Source: an uncultured virus (IMG/VR IMGVR_UViG_3300027801_001720)
Taxonomy: Duplodnaviria > Heunggongvirae > Uroviricota > Caudoviricetes
Strand: one strand, 5' to 3'
Virus record (IMG/VR): IMGVR_UViG_3300027801_001720
Length of the DNA: 54,508 nt
Below the pieces are notes generated by a model that worked only from the letters and a program-made list of their open reading frames with translations, was not told where the DNA came from and ran no database searches. Each line of letters opens with the position of its first letter. The first letter of the stretch is position 1. Position numbers and translations under genes: made by a program. This document shows, in pieces, positions 31,977 to 49,348 of this stretch.

Positions 31977-32052
31977 TGGTGGAGCTGATAGGGTTCGAAC
32001 CTACGACATCCACGTTGCAAACGTGGCGCTCTCCCAACTGAGCTACAGCCCC
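31977..32052 (-). tRNA. tRNA-Ala (UGC)
   Basis: GGGGCTGTAGCTCAGTTGGGAGAGCGCCACGTT-TGC-AACGTGGATGTCGTAGGTTCGAACCCTATCAGCTCCACCA: 76 nt, G3-U70 identity pair, encoded CCA. Confidence 0.97.
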
Positions 32053-36066: not shown

Positions 36067-37932
36067 TTATTTGTAAAGTTTTCTTACTTCACCATTAATT
36101 ATCGGAGCATAAATTTTAACAGGCTCCTCTTTACCTTTAACAGTAACTTCGCCCAATTTAGAACATGGAATGTTTGTAGTCTGCTGATATGTGTACTCAC
36201 TTATTAAAATAGGAGTATCTTGCTTCCTAGTTTCTGCTTCTAGTCTTGCACCTAAGTTTACAGCATCGCCTACAACACTATAATCTAATCTAGTTTCAGC
36301 ACCCATGTTACCCACAATACATGTGCCTGTGTTTACACCAGTACCAAATTTAACTCTAGGCAAGCCACGTTCTTCCATTTCTGCTTCTAGTTCATCGCCA
36401 AGTAGTTCAATTTCTATTGCTGTTTTAACTGCCATCTCGGCATGATTATCACAAGGTAGTGGAGCATTCCAGAATGCCATTACACAGTCTCCCATGAACT
36501 TATCTATCGTTCCACCGTTGGCTAATACTATATTTGTCATCTTATCCAGGAAGGTATTGATAAGTTCCACTAATCCCTCAGGGTCATCGTTCTTCATATA
36601 CTGTTCTGATATAGGAGTAAAGCCGACTATGTCAGCAAATAAGAAACTCATTTCTTTTCTTTCACCGCCCAACTTCATTAAACTAGGATCTTTAACTAGC
36701 ATATCTACATACTCTGGACTTATGTATGTACCGAATTGTGCTTTTATTTGTTGTCTCAACTTGTATTGTTTGTAAAAATTGTTAAATGTTGCTTGGGTAA
36801 ACACTAAAAATGTTGCAAGTAGTGGGAATGTTGCATCAAATAATAGCAGTTTTGACTGGTACATTAGTACACTAAACCATCCCAATCCACCCATGATACT
36901 AAGGGAAATTGGTATAGTTAACCATATAGGTGTTCTATACACACAGAAAGCAATAAGAATCATACCCAGTAACGCACATAGAAGCTCATACACGGTACTA
37001 AGTTGGCTACGCTGTATATTTGTACCATTAATTATATTCTGTAGCATATGAGCATGTATTTGCTGTGAATACAAGTTGCCACGTGGGGTTGGAACAGGAT
37101 TAGCAATGCCTTCTGCTGTTACACCTATTATAACATATTTGCTACCTAGGTCAGGCAAACTATCTGCATTTGTGTATTCAACTTCTTGAAAGGTGTTGTT
37201 GAACCTAATATATGCTGTTCCATCCGGTTGTGTTACAACTGGGTCATAAGGTGGAACAGCAATTTCGCTAACACCTATTTCAGATGTTTTAATTATATAA
37301 CTTGGTTTACCTGAATTAACTCTTAATAGCTCAATAGCAAAACTAGGATATAATTTTCCTTCAACGCCTATTGTTAGTGGGTAAGTTCTTGTTTGATTGT
37401 CTGGTTGTGGTGCTGAAGCATTAACTCCAATACCAAACGCCATAGTCTCTAGTTGGCTTATGTTCGTTACTAGGTTGGGCCATGTTAGTACAAAGTCCTG
37501 TGCGGGTAAAGGGCCTATCGTTCCTGTACCAATGTGAGGACCTGTACTCCTCACCCCTTTTGAACTTGGGGTCTGGGATAAAACTATTCCGTTGTCTTTT
37601 ATCCATGATGCAAATACCTCATCTCCTGCAAATCTGTCTTGTTCTGGAAACATAATAGTGAATCCTATTATGCCTTGATTCTTTTGTCTTATATCATGTA
37701 TAAGTTGTGCATAAGTTGTTCTAGGAAAAGGATACTGTCCTAATACGTCTAAACTCTTTTCACCTATGTTTATAATAGCAACATCGTTGCTATCCACAAT
37801 AGTATCAAACTGTTGATAACTATCAAATACTTGACTACGCAGACTCTGTAATGCTGTAGGGTCTGCTATTCGCACGGCTAGTAGCAGTAATATTGCAACT
37901 GCTACAGCACTCTTGCTGTAAATCCATTTCAT
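36067..37932 (-). CDS. CHASE2-domain class III adenylate/guanylate cyclase
   Basis: N-terminal TM; CHASE2 motifs (IINIGEKSL...GQYPFPR, IHAHMLQNI); three TMs; FGTYISP, LGGERKE, LFADIVGFT, GTIDKFMGDCVMAFW, YSVVGDAVNLGARLE, VKGK. Confidence 0.95.
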   Translation of the reverse strand: MKWIYSKSAVAVAILLLLAVRIADPTALQSLRSQVFDSYQQFDTIVDSNDVAIINIGEKSLDVLGQYPFPRTTYAQLIHDIRQKNQGIIGFTIMFPEQDRFAGDEVFASWIKDNGIVLSQTPSSKGVRSTGPHIGTGTIGPLPAQDFVLTWPNLVTNISQLETMAFGIGVNASAPQPDNQTRTYPLTIGVEGKLYPSFAIELLRVNSGKPSYIIKTSEIGVSEIAVPPYDPVVTQPDGTAYIRFNNTFQEVEYTNADSLPDLGSKYVIIGVTAEGIANPVPTPRGNLYSQQIHAHMLQNIINGTNIQRSQLSTVYELLCALLGMILIAFCVYRTPIWLTIPISLSIMGGLGWFSVLMYQSKLLLFDATFPLLATFLVFTQATFNNFYKQYKLRQQIKAQFGTYISPEYVDMLVKDPSLMKLGGERKEMSFLFADIVGFTPISEQYMKNDDPEGLVELINTFLDKMTNIVLANGGTIDKFMGDCVMAFWNAPLPCDNHAEMAVKTAIEIELLGDELEAEMEERGLPRVKFGTGVNTGTCIVGNMGAETRLDYSVVGDAVNLGARLEAETRKQDTPILISEYTYQQTTNIPCSKLGEVTVKGKEEPVKIYAPIINGEVRKLYK

Positions 37933-37946
37933 ACTAGTATTTAATG

Positions 37947-38378
37947 TTATTCAGTATCGTTAAGTGGATTTTCTAGTATAGTTGTAATTTTTTCTTCTAG
38001 TTCTTTTTTAGTAGTTCTAATGTCTGCATCCATTTCTCTGAAGCGACTTTGCATTTCTTTTTCCATCTCATAAACATCATTTCTAACTTCTCTTTGAGTC
38101 GATGCTGAAGTCTGGTCTACCTCTCTTGCTAAATCCAACGCCATGTCAATTTCGTCTTTAAGGTCTTCTCTGATTATGTCTGTAATCCTAGTCAACTCTT
38201 CCATTTTCATTTCTATTTGTGCTGGGTTTAAAGTAGAAAGTTTCTTTTCTGCAATAAGCAGTCTGTTGTAGAGTTCAAAGCCTCCCCATAGTCCACCAAT
38301 TAAAGTACCTAGTAAAGGAATTATAATTACGAGTTTAGAACCTCCTAACTTTATACCTTTATATTCTATCTCTGCCAT
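37947..38378 (-). CDS. Single-pass membrane protein with coiled coil
   Basis: LVIIIPLLGTLIGGLWGGFELY followed by a charged helical region. Confidence 0.75.
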   Translation of the reverse strand: MAEIEYKGIKLGGSKLVIIIPLLGTLIGGLWGGFELYNRLLIAEKKLSTLNPAQIEMKMEELTRITDIIREDLKDEIDMALDLAREVDQTSASTQREVRNDVYEMEKEMQSRFREMDADIRTTKKELEEKITTILENPLNDTE

Positions 38379-38379
38379 T

Positions 38380-41300
38380 TTATTTCTCCTGTTCCTGTAA
38401 TGTTTTATATTGGCTGTATATCATTTTTTTTAATTTAACTTGAGTGTTACCAGCCATCATGTAAAAACTCGCTTTGTTGTCTACAACTTTTTGTCCTGGA
38501 TATACTTGTGATGAGCCGTACCATGCTTGTTGGTCTGCTAGTTGTATTTGTGATGTGTAAGCACTAAAGCCTGGTGTATATCCTATGTAAGCAACTGCAA
38601 TCGTTTGGTCGCCATATTGTGCATCGTCAGTATTACCTGCTTGTATCGATGCTAATTCTTTTTCTAAGTTTGCCGCGGCAACTGTTGCTCCCATTGTATC
38701 TGCTAAACTTTCTACTGCGTCTGATTGTCTTTGCTCTTGGAACGTAGGTGCTTCAACTTCAAACCTGCTGTAATCTGCTGGTGCCTGGCTTAGGAATTCT
38801 GTTAAGCCTGTGCCACTACTTAATGCTGTGGTTAGTTCATCTTCGAACTGAATATCTGCTCCACTAACTCCACCGCTTGTTCCGTCATCAAAACTGTCTA
38901 CAAACTGTAAAGTATCTTCTTGTTGTTGTTCGAATGCTTGTACTGAGCTCTGTGCAACTTCAAATGCACCTGTGTCAACTGTATCAGTTACACTTGCTGT
39001 AGCATCAAAACTTTGTTGACCCATACGTTGTTCTGCTTGTTCTTGCAAGAACGTATCACCTGTTGAGCTTTCTTGTGTTAGCATACCCATGTTACCTTGA
39101 CTTCCGGTGCTGTAACTATTGCTACTTCCGTCATTGCCTTGTGCAAAACTTCCACTACCGTCATTGCCACTTGAACTGCCATCGTCAATACTTCCACTTC
39201 CGTCATCAACACTACCCGAACCATCGTCGATAATGCCTGCAATAATTGTTTCTAATTGTTGTTGTGTTCCACCATCATCAAAGTTATTACTGTTACCAAA
39301 GTCAATATTAAACTCTGCAACACTTAAACTCATAACACCTGATCCTACATTACCTACAAACTGTTTGTCTGCTTTTTCTTGTTTTTGTTCTCGTTGAACA
39401 TTTGACTGTGGGGTACTGGCATCTGCAATATGAGTGGGACCGTCTTCTTCGTGGTGTTCGTCCATCATAGGACCTTGTTCATAATCTTCGTCTATCTCTG
39501 CGTATGCTTCATTTTTAAATTGTTCTAAATCATCTTCACTAAGTAAATCTTCAAGTCCTTCTTCTTGTATAAAACGTTCTATGTCTGCTTCTGGGCCTAA
39601 TTCAAAGTAAGCCTCTTCTTCATACATTCTTTCGTTCTCAAATGCTATTAGTTCATCATCTGATAAATCAAAAAATGCTTCTATATCACATGTTGGACAT
39701 TCTTTTTGTAAGTCTATTTCATCGCTCAGGAATTGTTCGTATGCTAAATCAAATTCCATATCGTCTTCGTAATATATTTCCATCATGTACTCGTCATCTA
39801 ATGCATAATTATAAGACTCCCATTCAAAATTACCACGCTCATCAAATACTACATCTTTGCCATACCACTCATCTACTTGGTCTTGTCCAAATTCTTTTAC
39901 ATCATAATCGTACCAATCTTTTGATGACCAGCCATATGCGTCATCGCCATACTGTTCTTCAAACTGTTGGTCATACAGTTCTTCTTGTAGCATGTATTCT
40001 TCTGTTGCCCAAATATCACTTGTTGTAAACCCATTTGCAAATCCATTTTCTTCTGCTTGTTTTAACATAGTTTCGTCATGTAGTTCTAAATCATAATTTT
40101 CTAATCCAATAGTATCCATAACTAAATCGCCTGGATTGTTGCCTTGAAATTGTATGCTAGGATCATGTCCTAGTGCTATTATGTCTTGCGTACCCATTGT
40201 GATTAGTACTGCTTCTTGCGGACTTAAACCTTGCTCAACTAACATTTGTTGTTCACCATTTAAATATTCGTACTGTATATCATCATCTTCCATTGGGTCA
40301 TATTGATTAGGAACATACACACCGTCTTGATTCATATAAAAGTCATCGCCAGTATTTGAATTAATGCTGTCGTAATCCGCGTTAGGATCGTATCCGTCTG
40401 AATAGTAATCACCTTGGATACTAATTTGTGAACCATCGCTTTGTGTTACTAATCCTGTGTTAGGATCATAACCGTCCATTTCTCCAAAATCGTTTGGACT
40501 ATAATAAGGACCCATGTTTCCTGTGGCATAATCATATTGAGAGACGGCATCAAAAATACCTAATCCAGCACAGCCTGGTAAGTTTGGATCGTTATAACAC
40601 TCTTGTTCTTCTTCAAATTTTTTGTCTAAGGCTGAAAAATATCCATTACAATCTGTACTGTATGTAGGATCTACGGCACATTGTTGCTGTAAGTAAGTTA
40701 TACTATATAAACTACAGGCTGTGCTGTAAAGAGCATTGCTGGCACATTCTGCCGGTTCTGTTCCATTACCGTCTGCATACATGGCGCCGCCTTCTAATGT
40801 TCCGTTGTCATAATCGTCCCATATAAACAAGTAACGTCCTTGCAGTCCTGTGTTTGGATCTATACAAGTATCACAATAACTGTTATCACTAAAAAAGTAT
40901 GCTTCGTTAAGTTGGGTACTGCTTTTCTTTTCACCAACTAAAACATTGGAATGATTTATTTCTAAATTACCATATAAGTAAGCATAGTCATCATTTGTAT
41001 CTGTTTCATCACCAGGACAATCAGCACAATTTTGATTTAAAAGTACTACTTCAAAAGTATTATGTGCGTTTGGATACTGCGGATCAAACTGGTCTGTATC
41101 TGCTGTTACGCCATACTCACGCATGTAGTACCAACCAAATGTAGCGAAGGAGCCTGAGTTGTTAAACAGCATCGTGCTAGGGCTTGGTGCTTGGGTATCG
41201 TATATTGTGCCTAAGTCTAAATCGCTCCAGAAAGGAAATAGTGTATCATTCATCCCAACTGAAGAACTTAAATGTTGTATATCATAACTACAGTAATCAC

Positions 41301-41592
41301 TACTGCTAAATGCACTCGACTTCAGTAGTTTTAAACAACCATTAGTACTCATTAATCCATGGGTAAACGTTTCTCCATACCATTCAAAGTTAAAGCCAAT
41401 AGCAAATGCGGCATTACAACCTGTTTCATCTGCGGCACCTTGACATAGTATAGAACCGTCTGCATTACCATTCTCATATGGTGTAAGCAGATTGTTTAGA
41501 GGATAATTTCCAGGGGTAGAGTAACTGTTAGCCTCTACCAACGTTGGTACTAAGCAAAGTAGTAGTCCTGCTATTAAAGATTTGATTCCCAT
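38380..41592 (-). CDS. Giant secreted acidic protein with NIDO-like N-terminal domain and Cys repeats
   Basis: Signal peptide ending VEA; IGFNFEWYGETF...MSTNG...PFWSDL; CxxD/NPxYSxxCxxY repeats; D/E-rich middle; DDGSGS repeats. Confidence 0.7.
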   Translation of the reverse strand: MGIKSLIAGLLLCLVPTLVEANSYSTPGNYPLNNLLTPYENGNADGSILCQGAADETGCNAAFAIGFNFEWYGETFTHGLMSTNGCLKLLKSSAFSSSDYCSYDIQHLSSSVGMNDTLFPFWSDLDLGTIYDTQAPSPSTMLFNNSGSFATFGWYYMREYGVTADTDQFDPQYPNAHNTFEVVLLNQNCADCPGDETDTNDDYAYLYGNLEINHSNVLVGEKKSSTQLNEAYFFSDNSYCDTCIDPNTGLQGRYLFIWDDYDNGTLEGGAMYADGNGTEPAECASNALYSTACSLYSITYLQQQCAVDPTYSTDCNGYFSALDKKFEEEQECYNDPNLPGCAGLGIFDAVSQYDYATGNMGPYYSPNDFGEMDGYDPNTGLVTQSDGSQISIQGDYYSDGYDPNADYDSINSNTGDDFYMNQDGVYVPNQYDPMEDDDIQYEYLNGEQQMLVEQGLSPQEAVLITMGTQDIIALGHDPSIQFQGNNPGDLVMDTIGLENYDLELHDETMLKQAEENGFANGFTTSDIWATEEYMLQEELYDQQFEEQYGDDAYGWSSKDWYDYDVKEFGQDQVDEWYGKDVVFDERGNFEWESYNYALDDEYMMEIYYEDDMEFDLAYEQFLSDEIDLQKECPTCDIEAFFDLSDDELIAFENERMYEEEAYFELGPEADIERFIQEEGLEDLLSEDDLEQFKNEAYAEIDEDYEQGPMMDEHHEEDGPTHIADASTPQSNVQREQKQEKADKQFVGNVGSGVMSLSVAEFNIDFGNSNNFDDGGTQQQLETIIAGIIDDGSGSVDDGSGSIDDGSSSGNDGSGSFAQGNDGSSNSYSTGSQGNMGMLTQESSTGDTFLQEQAEQRMGQQSFDATASVTDTVDTGAFEVAQSSVQAFEQQQEDTLQFVDSFDDGTSGGVSGADIQFEDELTTALSSGTGLTEFLSQAPADYSRFEVEAPTFQEQRQSDAVESLADTMGATVAAANLEKELASIQAGNTDDAQYGDQTIAVAYIGYTPGFSAYTSQIQLADQQAWYGSSQVYPGQKVVDNKASFYMMAGNTQVKLKKMIYSQYKTLQEQEK

Positions 41593-42935
41593 TCACTCTC
41601 ACATTGGCTCTTTGTTTTCTTTTTGCCTTTACCTTTTTTCTTTCTACATTGTTTCATAAATGCGTCATACTCATCGCCTGACCTCATTACTTGACCGTCG
41701 ATTGGTGCTGAAGATTTTAAATTTTTATCTTTCTTCGTAAACCAGCCTTTTTTGTAGTCTGCTCTTTGTGTAGAATTATCTTCCCATTGTTTAGAAGCCG
41801 CATCACCAATTGCTCCCATATAAGGACAAGGTGTTCCAGCCATTTCCATTGCTTTGAAAACTCTAGCATCTTGACACATTAAACTAACAGCCGCAACTTT
41901 CATACCCATATCATAAATTGTTTTACTAAGTTTCATTCTTTCACAGTTCATATCTCTTACTGACTTACCACCTGAAATACCAAATACTTGTCCTTGGAAA
42001 GCACCTGATATACCTGTTGTACATAAGTCTTGAGAATAACTTGATCCTATGCTTGGTGCAATCGCACTAGCCGGAGGAGCCTTAGTTGTAATCTCTTGTT
42101 TAATAGTTTGGTCAGTTTTGTTAATGTTTTCGTTCTTGTTATTGTTATTATTAGTGTTGTTACTTTCACTTTTATTATTAGTGTTCACATCACTTTCACT
42201 TTTAGAAGTACTTTCATTCTTGTTGACGTTCGTATTATTAGAGGTCGTATTGTTGTTATTGTTATTGGTATTAGTAGCAGTTGAATTTGAATTAACATTC
42301 TGGTCAATATTCGAGTTGTTAGTATTTGTATTATTCGAAGTACTATTCACATTACTGTTGTTGGTGTTAGTATTGTTACTCGTGGTATTGTTCGTATTAT
42401 TGTTGGTGTTATTATTCGTATTCGTCGAAGTCGAAGTATTATTATTCGTATTATTGTTCGTATTAGTATTCGTCGAAGTATTATTATTCGTATTCGAGTT
42501 CGTGTTATTGTTCGTATTCGAAGCCGTCGAAGTATTATTATTAGTATTCGTATTCGCATTGGTATTAGTCGAAGTATTGGTACTAGTATTATTATTGGTA
42601 TTCGTATTGGCATTCGTGTTATTGTTGGTGTTGGTGTTTGTGTTCGCATTCGTGTTATTGTTGGTGTTTGTGTTCGTCGACGTATTCGTATTCGTCGAAG
42701 TATTATTATTGGTGTTCGCATTGGTATTGTTATTGGTATTTGTCGACGTATTGGTATTCGTATTATTATTCGTATTCGTACCAGTTGTCGTTGTAGTATT
42801 GTTGGTCGTTGTAGTTGACTCCTCACAATACTGTGTACCAGCAGTACATGTACCAGTTTGGTCCGCCTGAGCCGGTAACGTGAAAAGTCCGAACGAACTA
42901 ATCATGGCTATCGCAGACAATATTCTTATCTTCAT
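41574..42935 (-). CDS. Secreted Asn/Thr low-complexity repeat protein with Cys-containing C-terminal domain
   Basis: Signal peptide ending AQA; long NTNTNNN tract; APPASAIAPS...DLC...NCERMKLSK...AAVSLMCQD...AGTPCP. Confidence 0.8.
   Translation of the reverse strand: MKIRILSAIAMISSFGLFTLPAQADQTGTCTAGTQYCEESTTTTNNTTTTTGTNTNNNTNTNTSTNTNNNTNANTNNNTSTNTNTSTNTNTNNNTNANTNTNTNNNTNANTNTNNNTSTNTSTNTNANTNTNNNTSTASNTNNNTNSNTNNNTSTNTNTNNNTNNNTSTSTNTNNNTNNNTNNTTSNNTNTNNSNVNSTSNNTNTNNSNIDQNVNSNSTATNTNNNNNNTTSNNTNVNKNESTSKSESDVNTNNKSESNNTNNNNNKNENINKTDQTIKQEITTKAPPASAIAPSIGSSYSQDLCTTGISGAFQGQVFGISGGKSVRDMNCERMKLSKTIYDMGMKVAAVSLMCQDARVFKAMEMAGTPCPYMGAIGDAASKQWEDNSTQRADYKKGWFTKKDKNLKSSAPIDGQVMRSGDEYDAFMKQCRKKKGKGKKKTKSQCESEWESNL
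42130..42812 (-). repeat. Degenerate Asn/Thr-encoding repeat tract (approximate limits)
   Basis: Recurrent plus-strand units such as TTCGTATTATTA and GTCGAAGTATTATTA. Confidence 0.85.
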
Positions 42936-43106
42936 TATTACTCCTGTGGGTCTGGTTTGTTTGTTAAGTGGGTGTGTTATGTACTGTAGTGTCCTTGCTT
43001 AATATCTAAGCAAATGACCCTGTCTAATGTGCTATTATTTATCAGATTTATAACCGCAACATGTTGTTATAAATCAAAAAAATGAGAGTGGTCTCATTTT
43101 TAAGTC

Positions 43107-43139
43107 AAAAAAAAGCACACCGAAGTGTGCCTCTTTTTT
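43107..43139. terminator. Intrinsic terminator, possibly bidirectional
   Basis: A-tract, GCACAC-CGAA-GTGTGC, then CTCTTTTTT; UUCG loop and U tract on the minus strand. Confidence 0.85.
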
Positions 43140-43145
43140 AATGTT

Positions 43146-43277
43146 CTAACATTCCTGTGGGTGTTCTGCACAATACACTTCTAATTTTTTTTGGTTCTCT
43201 TTAAAAAGTGCTATTAGTTCTTTTGCAGTTAGTTCTTCGTTCTTCTTTTTGAAAAACGAAAAACTTGTTACTTTCCC
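43146..43277 (-). other. Candidate programmed -1 frameshift site and 41-codon extension
   Basis: G GGA AAG directly before TAA; the -1 frame is open to TAG at 43146-43148. Confidence 0.65.
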
Positions 43278-43549
43278 TCAGACGTGTCTTTCTTCTGTAG
43301 TTCATCAGTTTGCTTGTCTACATTTTCTGCAACTGTTTTAACAACACCTTGTGCTGTTTCAATAGTTACGTCTGCAATGTTTCTTGCATCATCAGTAATA
43401 GCAACTGCCAATGTTGCGGCTCCGCCGACAACAGAGTCAACTGTTCCTGTAACAATCTCTGTTCCGGCATTCCAAGCCCCTCCAACTGAGGCACAACTTG
43501 TGATTCCAAAACATACGATTAAACCAAAGACTGAAAGTAAATTTTTCAT
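43268..43549 (-). CDS. Lipoprotein
   Basis: MKNLLSVFGLIVCFGITSC lipobox, amphipathic helix; AAGGAG RBS; GATAAATA at 43599-43606. Confidence 0.75.
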   Translation of the reverse strand: MKNLLSVFGLIVCFGITSCASVGGAWNAGTEIVTGTVDSVVGGAATLAVAITDDARNIADVTIETAQGVVKTVAENVDKQTDELQKKDTSEGK

Positions 43550-43642
43550 TTCATCTCCTTATATATAAGGTACTTGCCCATCTGGCAAAGTACAGTTATA
43601 TTTATCGGAAAAGTGTTGTAATTATGTTACGATTTGTAACAT

Positions 43643-43957
43643 TTAGAAACCATAATTGGCGGCTTCATTGATTTCATCACCCCACAAACTGCGTTTGTTA
43701 AGTGTATATAGCTCTTGCCTAAGTAGGTCTTTTGTGTGGTTATTATTAGTTTCTTTTATCATATGTAGTAAATCCATTCTAGCCATAGTTTCTATTTCAT
43801 ATTGTAATTTACACCAAAACCACAGGAAAGTCGACATAAAAATTAAAGCAAGTATGTGAAGCATGAAGTAAGGAAAAAAGAAAGTAAATATCAGAACATG
43901 TGTGCAAATTACTGACAGTGAATAAACTTTATACGAGTTTAACCAATTAGTCATCAA
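43643..43957 (-). CDS. Small membrane protein
   Basis: Two hydrophobic segments; overlaps the upstream small ORF. Confidence 0.6.
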   Translation of the reverse strand: MMTNWLNSYKVYSLSVICTHVLIFTFFFPYFMLHILALIFMSTFLWFWCKLQYEIETMARMDLLHMIKETNNNHTKDLLRQELYTLNKRSLWGDEINEAANYGF

Positions 43958-44108
43958 TACTTTTAAATTGTTCTATATAAGCATTACTATGCCAATATGT
44001 ATCCAACACGATATCTGCAATTAAGGCAATTAACACTAATGTCATAATCACAGACAAGTATATGTTTATACCTGCTGTAATCTTTAACCACTTAATCATG
44101 TGTTTCAT
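43947..44108 (-). CDS. Small membrane protein (53 aa)
   Basis: MKHMIKWLKITAGINIYLSVIMTLVLIALIADIVL...; TTGACA-N17-TATAAT at 44145..44117. Confidence 0.65.
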   Translation of the reverse strand: MKHMIKWLKITAGINIYLSVIMTLVLIALIADIVLDTYWHSNAYIEQFKSIDD

Positions 44109-44154
44109 AACTAGTAATTATAGTTGATTAACGGTCTAATGTCAACCTTTTTGG

Positions 44155-45060
44155 TTACTGTTGGGTTACGTTTATATTACAACCGCCGGAAGTTACGCAA
44201 TTTTGATTAATGCTGTATGACTTTGTGATATCATTTATTTGTGTGAGGTTCAATGTTGTAGGCTGAGTTCCATACAATAGTATCGTGGCAGTATGGGCGC
44301 CGCCGCCTTGTTGTGCAACATTTATCGTATTGTTGTCCACGTATGTTTTTATAGTTAAAGTTTTTCCTGCATTATGTTTTTGCTGAGACCAAACTGTATT
44401 ATCATCTGAATATAGCCAAACATCTGCTGTATGTCCATCATCGGAAGTTGTAGTTCCCCAACCATTAGTCTGATAGCCAACAACTTTATTTCTGTCTCCG
44501 TGTAAGTCTATTATTGCTTTATGTCCGCCTTTGTTTGCTGTAGAGTGTGAAAATGTAGTATCTGTTACACTACTTAAATGTGCTCCTTGACCCCAACGTA
44601 TTTCGTTAGTGTCTCCCCAAACATGGAATCCTGTTTCTGTAGCCGCACAACCAGAACCTAAACTACAATATTGGTCTACATAAATTTCATTATCTACACC
44701 ATCAACGTCTCCACAAAATGTTGCATTGTTACAATTTACTTTACCCCATGTGCTGGTAAAACCTGCTGTGTTGTTTCTGCCTTCTTGTTTTATTTTAACT
44801 GTATTACCATCTCCTGATACAGAAAATTCTACTTCGTTGTCTTGTCCAAGTTGCCCGATCCACATAGTAAGATTGTCAACGTTACCATATTGTAACCCTA
44901 AGTCTAAGTCTATGTGTTGGTCTTTACCGCTTTGCAAAATATCCATTACTAAGTTATCACCCGTCTGGTCTATATGAACATGGTTATGCCCTTCTTCCGC
45001 AAAAAGTTGTGTTGCCATTGACAGCAAAACAAATACTTGTATTATTCCTAAAGTTCTCAT
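44155..45060 (-). CDS. Curlin-like (CsgA/CsgB-type repeat) secreted protein
   Basis: Signal peptide; repeats NHVHIDQTGDN, LTMWIGQLGQDN, NTVKIKQEGRNN, NTINVAQQGGG. Confidence 0.72.
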   Translation of the reverse strand: MRTLGIIQVFVLLSMATQLFAEEGHNHVHIDQTGDNLVMDILQSGKDQHIDLDLGLQYGNVDNLTMWIGQLGQDNEVEFSVSGDGNTVKIKQEGRNNTAGFTSTWGKVNCNNATFCGDVDGVDNEIYVDQYCSLGSGCAATETGFHVWGDTNEIRWGQGAHLSSVTDTTFSHSTANKGGHKAIIDLHGDRNKVVGYQTNGWGTTTSDDGHTADVWLYSDDNTVWSQQKHNAGKTLTIKTYVDNNTINVAQQGGGAHTATILLYGTQPTTLNLTQINDITKSYSINQNCVTSGGCNINVTQQ

Positions 45061-45061
45061 T

Positions 45062-46258
45062 TTAATCTTCCTGTGTAATTATTATAGTTGTGCCTTCACA
45101 ATCATTAAGACAAATAATAGTGTCTTTTAAATTACTATCATATATTTCTATTCTAGCACTAGTACCGGATCCAATTCGTATACTTGCTGTATTTGTAACT
45201 TGCCTAAAGAAATAAATCTTTCCGTCCAAGCTCAAAGTATTAACCTGTGTGTTAGGATCTAGCCCTAAAGCAGTTCCTGTAATTTTATCAACTCCTAGGT
45301 CTCCGCCTTTTGAGTCTGCTCTTCTTTTCTTATTAATGCCTGTACTTACATCTTCTACAACTTCTAATAGATCCACTAAAAAATCTACATCTAAGAAATT
45401 CATATCTAGCTCACTAAACTGTAAATCTTCGTCTGTTTCAGTAAGCATGTCTTGTTCTAATGCACTTGCATCTAATCCGTTAAAGTCTAACAAGCCGGCA
45501 TCGCCTTTTAATTCTTCCTGTTGTTCCTCAACTGCTTCTGTAATCTGTTGCGGTTCTGATACAATAAACATATTATCTATCATGTTTAGATCCAAGTCCG
45601 CAAGTACTACAGGATTAGTTGGTGCTTGTTCATATGTACTAACCATAACAGCCTGAAAGGCTTCTGTTAATAGTTGAACGCCACCAGCATTAGTAATAGT
45701 TATACTACCACTTGGTCTACAACCTTCCTCAAGTCTAACCCCATCGGTACAACCCGAGTCTGGTAATAGTATAACCAAACTTCTTCCTAATTCGTCTACT
45801 GTTGTAGTAAAGTCTGTTCCTCTAATACCAATAGTAGCAGTAGGCGTTTGAATAGTTATATTCTCCTTTGCTACTAAACCCAGTCCACCTGTAGCAAATC
45901 TGGCTGTACCTTGTACAAAGTTTAAAGCCATTCTACTTTTACTTGGATCTGGATCATAAACGTATTCGTTTATTTCCATGTAAGTATGTTCTGTCAAACT
46001 TACTTTTGTGTCGTCTATGAACTTTAGTACTAACCTACCATTTAAGGTTTCTACTTCGTCCAAACTAACTATGTCTGTGTCTAGTTCTGCAATCAATGTG
46101 TCTCCAGACTTTCGACTGATAGCACCTGGTGTTCCGCTCTGCTCGTATACACCGCCGATTTTTACATCGGCGGATATAACTGTGATTGGACTAAACAGTA
46201 ATAATGCTGTTAGAAAAAGTTTAATCCTTTTGTCTAATCGATACCGATGCATTTTCAC
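45062..46258 (-). CDS. FecR-domain secreted/periplasmic protein (true start probably slightly downstream)
   Basis: DEVET...FIDDTKVSL...YVYDP...GTARF...TPTATIGIRGTDF. Confidence 0.88.
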   Translation of the reverse strand: MKMHRYRLDKRIKLFLTALLLFSPITVISADVKIGGVYEQSGTPGAISRKSGDTLIAELDTDIVSLDEVETLNGRLVLKFIDDTKVSLTEHTYMEINEYVYDPDPSKSRMALNFVQGTARFATGGLGLVAKENITIQTPTATIGIRGTDFTTTVDELGRSLVILLPDSGCTDGVRLEEGCRPSGSITITNAGGVQLLTEAFQAVMVSTYEQAPTNPVVLADLDLNMIDNMFIVSEPQQITEAVEEQQEELKGDAGLLDFNGLDASALEQDMLTETDEDLQFSELDMNFLDVDFLVDLLEVVEDVSTGINKKRRADSKGGDLGVDKITGTALGLDPNTQVNTLSLDGKIYFFRQVTNTASIRIGSGTSARIEIYDSNLKDTIICLNDCEGTTIIITQED

Positions 46259-47051
46259 TGTCTATATCAACGTCAATTTTACCAGGACATACTGGTGAAC
46301 ATGTTGCCGCCATGGACTGCTCAAATTGGAAATCACCATCAGAGCCAACTAATACAAATTTTAAGTAATGGTTAGCATTACCAGTTTGGTTAGTTGCGAT
46401 AGCATTATCGTCGCCTGTTATGTTCATTTCCCATGTAGCACTAGTAGAGTCAACTTTAATTCCAGACATTGCTGTATTTACAGTTGAATTCCAATTAGTT
46501 CCTGCGGTTCCACCCCAAGTTCTAGTATTTGTAAAACTGTCTTTAAAGTTATTTCTACTTCCAAGGATTGTTAAATCCATGTTCAAGTTATCTGCTGAGT
46601 AGTTTCCGCCTAAGTCCATGTCAAATACGTTTGTGTCACCTTGTATATTCCATAGCATATCAACACTATTTGCAGAAGCGGTTTGCCCGATATTTGCATC
46701 TAAGTCATTGTTGTCGCCATAGAAATAAAAGTCCCAAACAGTCGACCCGGAACCATTACCAGTCCACGCACCAAATATTTCGTTACCATTACCATCTTGA
46801 ATAATATCAATAATCAAGTTTGAACCACTGATAACTAAATCGCTACCTTGTGATGCATCACCTGAAACCTTATTGCTATTACCAGCCTGTAATATTGTTA
46901 GAATTAAGTTATCACCTGTTTGGTCTATAAATACCTCATTTTCGTCTGCCGCCAATGATGGTGCCATAGTCGCTAGGATAATACCCATAACTCCGAAGAC
47001 ATTGATTGCAATTTTATTCATAAAATTTCTAGTCTTCATTTTTTTCTCCAT
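46221..47051 (-). CDS. Curlin-like secreted beta-repeat protein
   Basis: Signal peptide; NEVFIDQTGDNL, LTILQAGNSN, IDIIQDGNGN, NAIATNQTGN; directly after csgG. Confidence 0.72.
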   Translation of the reverse strand: MEKKMKTRNFMNKIAINVFGVMGIILATMAPSLAADENEVFIDQTGDNLILTILQAGNSNKVSGDASQGSDLVISGSNLIIDIIQDGNGNEIFGAWTGNGSGSTVWDFYFYGDNNDLDANIGQTASANSVDMLWNIQGDTNVFDMDLGGNYSADNLNMDLTILGSRNNFKDSFTNTRTWGGTAGTNWNSTVNTAMSGIKVDSTSATWEMNITGDDNAIATNQTGNANHYLKFVLVGSDGDFQFEQSMAATCSPVCPGKIDVDIDSENASVSIRQKD

Positions 47052-48012
47052 TAGATTTCTCTAGCAACATTTTTTGCCAGAGCTTCTTATCAGCTTTAAG
47101 GTCGTCTTCGTTAATGTCTATTTGCATCCAAGTCGCTTGTTCACCAGGTTTTAACTCCTGTTGATCCCACCCTTCTGGATAGACTATTTTCCAATAACCC
47201 CTTTCACTGCCTTGTTGTATAAGTGCCAATACCGCGGCTTCAATTGCCGAACGTACTGCCCACGTTACACTTTCGTTTTCTGTCATACCACTCTCTAGCT
47301 CTAGTAGTTTCGTGTCCATATCTAAGAATTTAAATATGTCTCCTGCTTGTCCAGTGCTTAAAATGGTTTTGTATGTCTGTACGTTGAGTATCACTTCACC
47401 AGTTAGTGTGCTTACTGCACGAAGTGATATAACAACACTATCTCTACGATATTGGTTTGTTGTCCCTATACCTAGATATCTTGCGCCATTACCGCCAGTC
47501 TCAACATTAGTGTCGTATCCTACAATACCACCTTCTAATATCATTCCTGCAAATAATAATGGTTGGACTGCCTGTGCTGGTTCGGTTTCAGTCTCATACT
47601 GTTCGCGTGTGCTACGAACAATCTGCCTTTCCCTTACCAAATTGTCAAGTCCTAATCCTCTTTCAACAACTCGGAACCATGTACCTTTCGGATTATCTTT
47701 GGCTCCAGCCGCTTTAAGTGAATCTATTAATAAATCTTTAGCACCTTGTGTTACGGCTGTGCTAAATGAAGCCGATCCATCACTACTTAACCGTTGTCCA
47801 GTTAAGTCGTCAAATTTATAAACTGCTACCACTGGCATTTTTTCTGCTGGTGGTAAGTTTCGTAATTTTTTATACGTGGGTAGTTCTACAAACTTTGGTT
47901 CTTCTATACATTCCAAGAAGTCAGTCATGCAGACTTTATCACCGGGGATGGAGATACTCGCACACCCAGTAAACAATAACGCAAATATAATTGCTAAAAA
48001 ACTCTGCCTCAC
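47029..48012 (-). CDS. csgG: CsgG curli secretion pore lipoprotein
   Basis: Lipobox FTGC, VAVYKFDDLTGQ, FSTAVTQG, WFRVVERGLGLDNLVRERQI, LEGGIVGYDTNVETGGNGARYLGIG, AVRSAIEAAV. Confidence 0.95.
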   Translation of the reverse strand: MRQSFLAIIFALLFTGCASISIPGDKVCMTDFLECIEEPKFVELPTYKKLRNLPPAEKMPVVAVYKFDDLTGQRLSSDGSASFSTAVTQGAKDLLIDSLKAAGAKDNPKGTWFRVVERGLGLDNLVRERQIVRSTREQYETETEPAQAVQPLLFAGMILEGGIVGYDTNVETGGNGARYLGIGTTNQYRRDSVVISLRAVSTLTGEVILNVQTYKTILSTGQAGDIFKFLDMDTKLLELESGMTENESVTWAVRSAIEAAVLALIQQGSERGYWKIVYPEGWDQQELKPGEQATWMQIDINEDDLKADKKLWQKMLLEKSNGEKNED

Positions 48013-48013
48013 T

Positions 48014-48511
48014 TTAACCGCCTAACGTACCGATTCCAATTGGAATCTCAATTTCAGTAATAGTTCCATCGGGATCTACAATAGTCATCACGATGTACTC
48101 TATACCATCTATCATTTTTACTATATAAGAAACACTACTGCCTTCAATTTCAAATGCTCCTTCTCTTGAGTTGGTACAAGATACTTCTTCACCTGGATTA
48201 CAAAACATACTATCGACTAATCCTTTAGAGATTTGTGAATAGATTCTACTCTCCAAATTTCTAATAAATTTATTAATTGTGCTGTTATCCTCTAATCTGT
48301 CTGCCGCTCTTAGTGCCGCCTCAATATCGTCTTTAATTTTATCTTTTCTACTTTTTTCCTGATTCTCAATAGTCAAGTAATGAGCTCCAGTCCCTATACC
48401 ACTAAAGGAAGGGTTTTTAAATTTGTGCGTTAATTGGTCTGCCATTACGCCTTGACTTGCGAAATAAAATATGCCTACCAATACGCCTAAATGCGTTCCT
48501 GTAATTTTCAT
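48014..48511 (-). CDS. csgF: CsgF-like curli assembly protein
   Basis: Signal peptide, then QLTHKFKNPSFSG; F..NLESRIYSQIS; C-terminal DPDGTITEIEIP. Confidence 0.85.
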   Translation of the reverse strand: MKITGTHLGVLVGIFYFASQGVMADQLTHKFKNPSFSGIGTGAHYLTIENQEKSRKDKIKDDIEAALRAADRLEDNSTINKFIRNLESRIYSQISKGLVDSMFCNPGEEVSCTNSREGAFEIEGSSVSYIVKMIDGIEYIVMTIVDPDGTITEIEIPIGIGTLGG

Positions 48512-48810
48512 TTTTTATCCTTGAGAGACTTTAGTTCTTCAACTGCCTCTTCTTCTTCGTGCTCTTCGATTATTTTTTCTTTGGCACGGTATTCTAACAC
48601 TACATTAACTTTTTGTTGTAGTCTTATCATGTCTTGATCTAACATTCTTGTTTGGTCAATAACTTTAATTAATGCCATATGCATTTTACCTAGTTCAGGC
48701 TTAACATGTGTATTCATGTAATTCCAAACATAGTAAATAAAATAGCCTAACCCAACGCAGGCGACAACAGGAAAACCGTATTCACTTATTATAGTTGCAA
48801 GGTTATTCAT
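48508..48810 (-). CDS. Small single-pass membrane protein
   Basis: ISEYGFPVVACVGLGYFIYYVW plus helical tail; similar to the next ORF. Confidence 0.75.
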   Translation of the reverse strand: MNNLATIISEYGFPVVACVGLGYFIYYVWNYMNTHVKPELGKMHMALIKVIDQTRMLDQDMIRLQQKVNVVLEYRAKEKIIEEHEEEEAVEELKSLKDKK

Positions 48811-49106
48811 TAGTCTCTCCTTGAGTCTATTCTGCCATCTTCAATGAAGTTTTCTGCTCTGGCAATTCGTTCAATGTCGGGTCTAAGCTCTAATGCACTA
48901 CTTACTAGTAAGTCAATTTTTATCATTTCGTTACTCATAGTTCTGGCTCTGTCTTCCAACATTACGCAAAATGTAGTCAGTGTTTTAATTTGCCCCACGA
49001 TGCCGGCGAGCATTTGTTTGATAGTTAAGAAGATAAAATATCCCATTGCTAAACTTCCAACAATAGGCGTTCCGACCTCCGCTATTAATTTGAAAATCTC
49101 ATCCAT
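48810..49106 (-). CDS. Small single-pass membrane protein
   Basis: IAEVGTPIVGSLAMGYFIFL; TAATG coupling; CATAAATA at 49174-49181. Confidence 0.75.
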   Translation of the reverse strand: MDEIFKLIAEVGTPIVGSLAMGYFIFLTIKQMLAGIVGQIKTLTTFCVMLEDRARTMSNEMIKIDLLVSSALELRPDIERIARAENFIEDGRIDSRRD

Positions 49107-49243
49107 ATATGCACACTCTGTATGTTTGTATCTTTTTGTGTAAAGTGTGTTTCTTTGTTACTCTCTACAGCACTATTTATGCAAACTTTCAGGAAAATGT
49201 GCCGCAGAACCATGGGTTGACTTGATAATATTGATAAATATAA

Positions 49244-49283
49244 CCGTAACATATCTGTAACATGCCTGTAACACAAAGTTTAC
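49244..49283 (+). promoter_or_regulatory. 11-bp-period direct repeats, Pho-box / OmpR-family-like
   Basis: CCGTAAC (49244), CTGTAAC (49255), CTGTAAC (49266), AGTTTAC (49277). Confidence 0.55.
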
Positions 49284-49348
49284 AATACCCTTTGGGTTGA
49301 CGTAAACAGTAACACATGATGCAAAGTGTTCTCACAAAGGAGATAAAC

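Follow-up and report, generated by a model that had tools for sequence, protein, structure and literature searches.

The locus considered here raises a simple question: why does a short lipoprotein gene of a phage end on a slippery heptamer, with an open -1 frame behind it? The window, i.e. the whole stretch of 54,508 nucleotides that was analysed, is a phage contig from an uncultured virus with a GC content of 37% and not a single N. At the gene and its end the following features were found:

43268..43549, (-) strand: 0-frame gene for a 93-aa prelipoprotein, 93 codons, ending GAG GGA AAG TAA
43555..43560, (-) strand: Shine-Dalgarno (SD) sequence AAGGAG, seen in the sequence 5 nt 5' of the ATG
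43277-43271, (-) strand: slippery heptamer GGGAAAG (G GGA AAG), immediately 5' of the 0-frame stop
43146..43271, (-) strand: -1 extension of 41 codons, predicted loose linker and helix-helix head ending C-x6-C
43231..43265, (-) strand: putative stimulatory stem-loop of 15 bp, 5 nt 3' of the heptamer, -17.4 kcal/mol

GGGAAAG is the slippery site of the lambda tail assembly chaperone, and the original prediction read this gene end as a frameshift of lambda G-T type that yields two lipoprotein isoforms. All of its coordinates were confirmed: the codons of the gene end, the closure of the -1 frame by a TGA two codons ahead of the 0-frame stop, and the 41 open codons that follow up to a TAG at 43148-43146. 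It had also denied the -1 frame a usable start, and the only possible one is indeed a GTG 10 codons before the end of that frame. Since the post-slip codons GGG and AAA encode the same residues as GGA and AAG and the next codon is GTA, the long form would comprise 134 residues (93 + 41). What had been missed is the 15-bp hairpin at 43265-43231. From the evidence given below it is highly probable that the gene contains a programmed -1 ribosomal frameshift, a statement about mechanism and not about function.

Since GGGAAAG occurs four times in the window and 3 of the 75 window ORFs of at least 80 codons end in some XXXAAAZ, the heptamer taken alone carries modest weight only. What counts strongly is that heptamer and extension occur together in homologues. 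Two homologue searches contributed the best 80 of 144 and the best 80 of 385 confirmed stretches. The 279 loci fetched contained 108 plus 60 distinct gene ends. After removal of four loci cut inside the gene (L111, L156, L173 and L209), a weak cellular match (L094) and three duplicates, 160 distinct ends including the window remained. A two-cysteine -1 extension is present in 89 of them, 70 have neither heptamer nor extension, and one carries AAAAAAG on a contig that is broken inside the extension. Perfect XXXAAAZ heptamers were found in 86 of the 89 extension-bearing ends and the imperfect GGAAAAG in the other three; none of the 70 full-length ends without extension has a heptamer. The conservation in homologues to which the original prediction had pointed is thereby borne out. 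At many of the 70 cassette-free loci the next gene begins immediately. The heptamer lies 0-2 codons from the stop and always in the codon phase X XXY YYZ.

The perfect heptamers fall into five variants, of which AAAAAAG is the commonest (54 ends), followed by GGGAAAG (22), CCCAAAA (8), CCCAAAC (1) and GGGAAAC (1). A_AAA_AAG as well as G_GGA_AAG rank as highly shift-prone in E. coli according to the accessible part of PMC5009743. The less ideal bacterial sites CCCAAAA, CCCAAAC, GGGAAAC and GGAAAAG make up 13 of the 89 ends and count against a frameshift. In distant representatives, obtained by a profile search, the last residues are EGK, AKK or KKD. A quick tree was calculated from the protein bodies minus their last five residues (72 columns, midpoint root; L236 and L259, which have no lipobox region, were excluded). 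On this tree GGGAAAG and AAAAAAG are interleaved: the 7 labels change 21 times, and of 138 inner branches 70 are unresolved. The cassette-free rows form about four groups, one of which, with 30 rows, is nested among shifting rows with thin support. Since 70 homologues do without the cassette, the long form is not needed by the whole family.

The L210-L253 subfamily has neither heptamer nor extension and shows a conserved C-terminal P-D-F-P-T-G/A/S-E/K-L-K; this ending may be an in-frame substitute for the head. In T4-like phages the gene lies right after gp32 (around 1500-1770 in L059, L071 and L074). The cassette is present in L058, L059 and L062 and absent from L071 and L074, and these loci offer a natural comparison with and without cassette at one position. 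A further shifting homologue at L261:2545-4760, on a contig shared with L196, has GGGAAAG and a 66-codon extension; it is flanked by a tail terminator gene on one side and by a major tail protein gene on the other.

For 88 distinct extensions, pairwise dN/dS in the -1 frame was 0.16 (159 pairs of at least 80% identity) and 0.18 (514 pairs of 65-80%), where the pairs are not independent. In the same pairs and region the 0 frame gave 1.25 and 0.85 and the +1 frame 2.36 and 2.1. The most variable codon position in the extensions is the third. This pattern indicates a protein-coding -1 frame under purifying selection. Both cysteines of the C-x6-C tail, already recognised in the original prediction, are invariant in 39 of 39 aligned extensions, as is a proline. 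The model of the extension has helices at 16-25 and 27-36 with an overall pLDDT of 84, and one subfamily has a longer head with strands on either side of the cysteine loop. Stop readthrough and the +1/-2 frames were rejected since the resulting products are short and unconserved, with dN/dS near or above 1. One sequence, P0142, joins the end of the body and the extension in one frame; it was rejected as an indel artefact, because it has no N-terminus, lacks the last cysteine and comes from a single contig. Longer proteins with the extension in frame were absent among 7,999 candidates scored, which is weak evidence.

Might the -1 frame be a separate small gene, with its own start or translated by coupling, and the heptamer incidental? 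Gene callers do annotate parts of the extension from internal starts in the relatives P0130, P0133, P0134 and P0138, and an ATG, GTG or TTG occurs within the first 15 codons of 14 of 92 extensions. The remaining 78, however, have no such early start, and the window offers only the late GTG mentioned above. A separate gene would leave both the co-occurrence with the heptamer and the hairpin without explanation. Moreover, an invariant cysteine pair would suit an exported domain that needs an upstream signal peptide. We regard a separate gene as extremely unlikely and continue with the frameshift.

An assembly error as the cause of the frame break is unlikely, since contigs from both DNA and RNA cross the heptamer without an indel. 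A DNA run that carries no flag as possible source gave a contig which covers 43035-43524 and shows neither differences nor gaps (0 of either). The contig from an RNA run spans 43156-43576 with 0 gaps and no insertion at the heptamer, where it has to be considered that rare variants are invisible in contigs and that the RNA library may contain DNA. The original prediction had named an indel as a possible source of error, and neither contig has a continuous frame. These data also bear on transcriptional slippage, in which an extra base in the G3A3 or A6 run would yield the long form. An A6 run is present in 54 of the 89 extension-bearing ends, and a minority of slipped transcripts would be hidden in contigs. 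The run at the window site, however, consists of just three G and three A, and the accessible part of PMC3711429 gives An with n > 7 for such slippage. The constant codon phase and the RNA contig without insertion likewise argue against it, and the 3' hairpin is not yet made when the polymerase crosses the run but could act on the ribosome. Taken together, transcriptional slippage is a very improbable source of the long form. Slippage of the ribosome by -1 to give isoforms of 93 and 134 residues, as proposed originally, is the best reading of the homologue and contig evidence.

The hairpin behind the heptamer has a z-score of -5.8, and none of 200 shuffles matches it. Within the 50 nt past the heptamer, z is below -2 in 30 of 57 loci with heptamer versus 5 of 27 without; control regions reach this value in 5 of 57 cases further downstream and in 1 of 57 upstream. 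In some lineages the hairpin is weak (z > -2 in 27 of 57 loci). The spacing between heptamer and hairpin is most often about 6 nt (24 of 57). The fold near the site belongs to the best 5% of synonymous recodings at 69 of 89 loci, compared with 19 of 89 further downstream. In 19 close rows 93% of the cells are paired, with double changes in 2 of 7 consensus pairs, a count equalled in 409 of 500 shuffles. Column-wise covariation is modest, since the stem register slides between lineages. An internal 5' SD stimulator is absent: a duplex below -4 kcal/mol with the anti-SD 7-mer was found in 5 of 89 extension-bearing ends versus 1 of 71 others. The strength of the hairpin suggests that the site may shift more often than that of lambda.

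The transcription unit is delimited by three further elements:

43599..43606, (-) strand: late-promoter-like octamer GATAAATA, repeated 12 times in the window
43570..43593, (-) strand: covarying 5' leader hairpin just behind the octamer, its 5' end being the predicted transcription start
43107..43138, (-) strand: intrinsic terminator hairpin with U tail, -17.1 kcal/mol, z -4.5

GATAAATA resembles the T4 late promoter TATAAATA. Because its 12 copies compare with 4.1 expected in the window (0 of 100 shuffles reach 12) and it stands upstream of the tail sheath gene and other genes of the structural module, we read it as a probable late promoter. The leader hairpin consists of a 7-bp lower stem, a bulged U, a 3-bp upper stem and the loop AGWUG with an invariant C-G closure. 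In 29 rows picked for having the motif, both sides change in 9 of 10 pairs, 93% of the cells are paired and covariation is 0.79 versus 0.20 after shuffling. It was found in 67 of 82 extension-bearing leaders and in 3 of 70 others, one of these being the cut locus L155, and no Rfam family matches it. The tie to the frameshift is not strict: L058 and L059 shift without the hairpin, and related hairpins precede some non-shifting genes. The near-invariant loop suggests a protein-binding site and not just a stabilising cap. In the window this CAGWUG(G) hairpin is the sole copy with both a late promoter in front of it and a gene after it. The end of one RNA contig coincides with the 5' base of the hairpin, 43593, and hints weakly at the transcript start; two others end at 43576 and 43583. 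RNA contigs from three studies cover the lipoprotein gene and not its neighbours; this was not counted as higher expression. Upstream of the late promoter lies a palindrome TGTTA-N7-TAACA of the general form TGTNA-N7-TNACA (43641-43625, (-) strand). Its pattern has 3 copies in the window, and the palindrome or a looser repeat occurs in 10 of 82 related leaders; GTTAC-like repeats are present near 49240-49300.

The terminator stem, which is also listed on the + strand, begins 7 nt past the -1 frame stop, in agreement with the original observation that this frame ends just before the terminator. The predicted transcript has about 490 nt. Since the terminator follows the stop of the extension and not that of the 0 frame, the message is apparently laid out to include the extension. 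Terminator-like elements follow the extension stop at 62 of 88 loci, counted without a shuffled control. Masking of the SD sequence in longer read-through transcripts, of the T4 lysozyme type, is unsupported, because the openness equals that of the shuffled-upstream control (0.50 in long versus 0.70 in short transcripts of 64 loci; 0.49 with shuffled upstream sequence, p 0.6).

The following course of events can be proposed. A late, probably monocistronic mRNA would be translated into the prelipoprotein. Most ribosomes would terminate at the TAA, giving a mature, lipid-anchored amphipathic helix of 11-mer repeats. Some would be held up by the 3' hairpin while tRNA-Gly and tRNA-Lys occupy GGA AAG; re-pairing of both tRNAs on GGG AAA would bypass the stop and add 41 residues. 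The slip itself and its efficiency are predicted from these signals. In the added part, a linker composition of Phe/Ser/Leu and then Lys/Arg/Glu would track the two hairpin arms, and a small helical head would be closed by the two cysteines, probably as a disulfide after export. A long protein presumably exists, and its ratio to the short one may be fixed, as claimed originally. The single tRNA gene found in the window lies here:

31977-32052, (-) strand: tRNA-Ala(TGC) gene

Genes for tRNA-Lys and tRNA-Gly are absent from the window.

What kind of protein is extended in this way? The 0-frame product begins with MK and comprises a signal peptide, the lipobox ITSC at 16-19 with Cys19, a helix of about 65 residues and an acidic end. 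Cys19 is invariant in 22 of 22 aligned homologues. With the lipobox called from the sequence pattern against the consensus, the product is presumably a lipoprotein of bacterial type, and the lipid anchor of the mature short form (75 residues) is predicted accordingly. Since the hydrophobic period across 122 bodies is 3.68, near 11/3, and homologues are distinguished by exact 11-residue insertions, the body is predicted to be a hendecad amphipathic helix. Such a helix could lie on a membrane or form a right-handed coiled coil. The structure model of the body is a single long helix of low confidence (pLDDT 60), and the prediction of a three-copy homo-oligomer of residues 19-88 scored 0.00, which, with the monomer fold itself uncertain, speaks neither for nor against binding.

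Database comparisons gave little for either part. At E 0.1 the lipoprotein has no match in Pfam; in PHROGs it reaches just three unnamed families (E 0.03-0.09), and it is unmatched at E 1 among 50,697 records of cultured phages. Its nearest Atlas clusters are 98-100% viral and without a Pfam family. Cellular genomes gave one weak partial match among 100 candidate stretches, the excluded L094. Longer forms of the body were represented by two matches with unrelated tails. For the extension, Pfam families all stayed under the cut-off, PDB sequences gained no solid support (best E 0.048), and there was no convincing fold in the viral fold library (best E 6.3) and no usable match in the Atlas search. 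Two apparent identities of the extension were rejected. CP12 was matched by 8 of 39 members with a best E of 0.016 (the window reaches 15 bits against a cut-off of 22.7), and HdeA of the HdeA/HdeB type by 6 of 39 with a best E of 0.015, below the cut-off; both matches cover mainly the YC..NP motif. A secreted protein encoded after the lipoprotein in L008, L105 and L142 has a (Y/F)C..NP..C-like motif that resembles the end of the extension.

The surroundings of the gene in the window contain two elements of relevance:

36067-49106, (-) strand: curli-like cluster, which contains the lipoprotein gene
44145-44117, (-) strand: perfect sigma-70 consensus promoter TTGACA-17-TATAAT, preceding a gene for a 53-aa membrane peptide

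The cluster encodes CsgF, CsgG, FecR, a CHASE2-adenylate cyclase and two curlin-repeat proteins, together with an Asn/Thr-rich secreted protein, a 1070-aa acidic secreted protein and two phrog_18771 membrane proteins with weak holin similarity. The peptide gene behind the sigma-70 promoter starts with MKHMIKWLK, and its relatives occur near shifting lipoprotein loci (43 of 89 by one marker, 33 of 89 by another). Genes for a terminase, for UvsX and for a gp32-like protein lie elsewhere in the window, as does that for a tail sheath of 928 aa, which is more than 22 kb away from the lipoprotein gene. The best cultured matches to the terminase are PA5oct-like Pseudomonas jumbo phages (58% identity). 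The carrier of the curli-like cluster here is a PA5oct-like jumbo phage and not a T4-like pelagimyophage. Near-identical DNA is found in marine and seawater metagenomes, with at least half of the sampled words in 14 of 24 runs among those listed. The cassette is found in jumbo myophages and in T4-like phages, and also in at least one phage whose tail module is of siphovirus type.

Within a radius of 1.5 kb, limited by contig ends, curli-like or CHASE2-cluster genes accompany 60 of the 89 loci with extension and 2 of the other 70; 29 of the 89 have no such neighbour within the available flanks. This association is confounded by ancestry. Major capsid genes were found within the same distance of 0 of 89 shifting and 11 of 70 non-shifting loci, and gp32 near 4 of 89 and 2 of 70. 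The late promoter, the lipobox, the helix and the neighbours fit a late envelope protein. We tentatively propose, at rather less than even confidence, that it forms a coat on the outer membrane of infected cells, or remodels this membrane, while the minority of headed copies binds a partner, probably in connection with the curli-like cluster.

If the frameshift is accepted, a lysis accessory could also be considered, i.e. a spanin-like disruptor of the outer membrane whose long form would serve disulfide-linked oligomerisation. The late promoter would suit this role. Moreover, cassette-free homologues adjoin endolysins in L043, L054 and L088, and L175, L199 and L204 have a gene for an Rz-like spanin upstream. 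Lysis-type markers accompany 14 of the 70 non-shifting loci and 9 of the 89 shifting ones at a distance of up to 1.5 kb. Most loci, however, have no lysis marker nearby, none adjoins the window gene, and other homologues follow major capsid or gp32 genes. Where an Rz-like spanin adjoins, the role is already filled. The protein has no similarity to spanin families, both its ends are hydrophilic, and the gene is free-standing with its own promoter and terminator. Membership among the o- or u-spanins was rejected, because the gene is neither paired with nor embedded in an i-spanin gene and its product has no C-terminal transmembrane segment. On balance a lysis accessory is unlikely.

T5 Llp and Cor are examples of lipoproteins that exclude superinfection or block receptors. 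A similar role, again given the frameshift, would make the head a variable receptor-binding part. A small, free-standing and apparently well-transcribed gene at variable positions across unrelated phage types would be in line with this, as would the virus-restricted clusters. The protein is not homologous to any such family, however, its body is a predicted repeat helix instead of a folded domain, and its head shows conservation although variation might be expected of a part that binds receptors. We consider exclusion more doubtful still than a lysis accessory, and return to the late envelope protein as the working proposal.

A more far-reaching version of that proposal is decidedly speculative. 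The cassette might be a self-contained recoding module of marine phages, in which an operator in the leader hairpin and the frameshift jointly set the amount and the ratio of the lipoprotein. The isoforms would form a G/GT-like surface pair: short helices would coat a membrane or fibre, and a few headed copies would recruit a partner, e.g. the curli-like secretion machinery. If this were true, the principle of stoichiometric frameshifting would extend from virion assembly to an envelope structure built by a phage, and the unexplained curli clusters of phages would gain a testable handle. Independently of this, the locus points to an apparently well-expressed, uncharacterised late envelope protein beside such a cluster and to a widespread, presumably frameshifted exported lipoprotein that gene callers have missed. 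The about 90 natural combinations of heptamer and hairpin (five perfect heptamers, hairpins from weak to 15 bp) could be used for testing the rules of bacterial frameshifting.

The mechanism is classical; its use in a phage lipoprotein gene seems to be undescribed. In the literature searched there was no report of the gene or of a frameshifted phage lipoprotein. The accessible part of the review PMC5009743 gives tail chaperones, capsid or tail proteins for -1 frameshifts of phages. The pelagimyophages have curli-like CsgG/CsgF clusters, and the window likewise contains CsgG, CsgF, curlin-repeat, FecR and CHASE2-cyclase genes, but its phage is nearest to PA5oct-like jumbo phages among cultured records. 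Neither 'lipoprotein' nor 'frameshift' appears in the main text of PMC7029224.

Of the label 'lambda G-T type', the letters of the heptamer stand; the 3' stem-loop, the predominance of AAAAAAG and the missing chaperone homology and placement speak against it. As in lambda gpG/gpGT, a slip near the 3' end of a short gene would give a C-terminally extended minority product. In contrast to gpG/gpGT, the lipoprotein is without homology to them, has a signal peptide, a lipobox and a strong 3' hairpin, and most of its relatives use AAAAAAG. Membership in the G/GT family was rejected, since the gene is flanked by the curli-like cluster and does not lie between major tail protein and tape measure genes; even the slot in L261, between tail terminator and major tail gene, still differs from that of the lambda chaperone. 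The same heptamer is listed for the g-t genes of haloviruses in the accessible part of PMC5009743, which also describes frameshifts that add a C-terminal domain to some copies in T7/T3 10A/10B, Lactobacillus A2 and Listeria A118. Those capsid and tail products are virion proteins, often with Ig-like domains, whereas here a lipoprotein would receive a helical head of about 25 residues with two cysteines.

A closer comparison than lambda is the -1 cassette of the dnaX/IS911/csoS2 type, and the cassette described here appears to work in the same way, used to append a domain. E. coli dnaX, IS911/IS3 and Halothiobacillus csoS2 likewise combine an X XXA AAG heptamer, with its lysine codon, and a 3' stem-loop. 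Like the present cassette, csoS2 appears to have no 5' SD stimulator in the accessible part of PMC5009743, whereas dnaX has one. The main difference lies in the outcome: in dnaX and csoS2 the shift shortens the protein, whereas here bypass of the stop would lengthen an exported lipoprotein.
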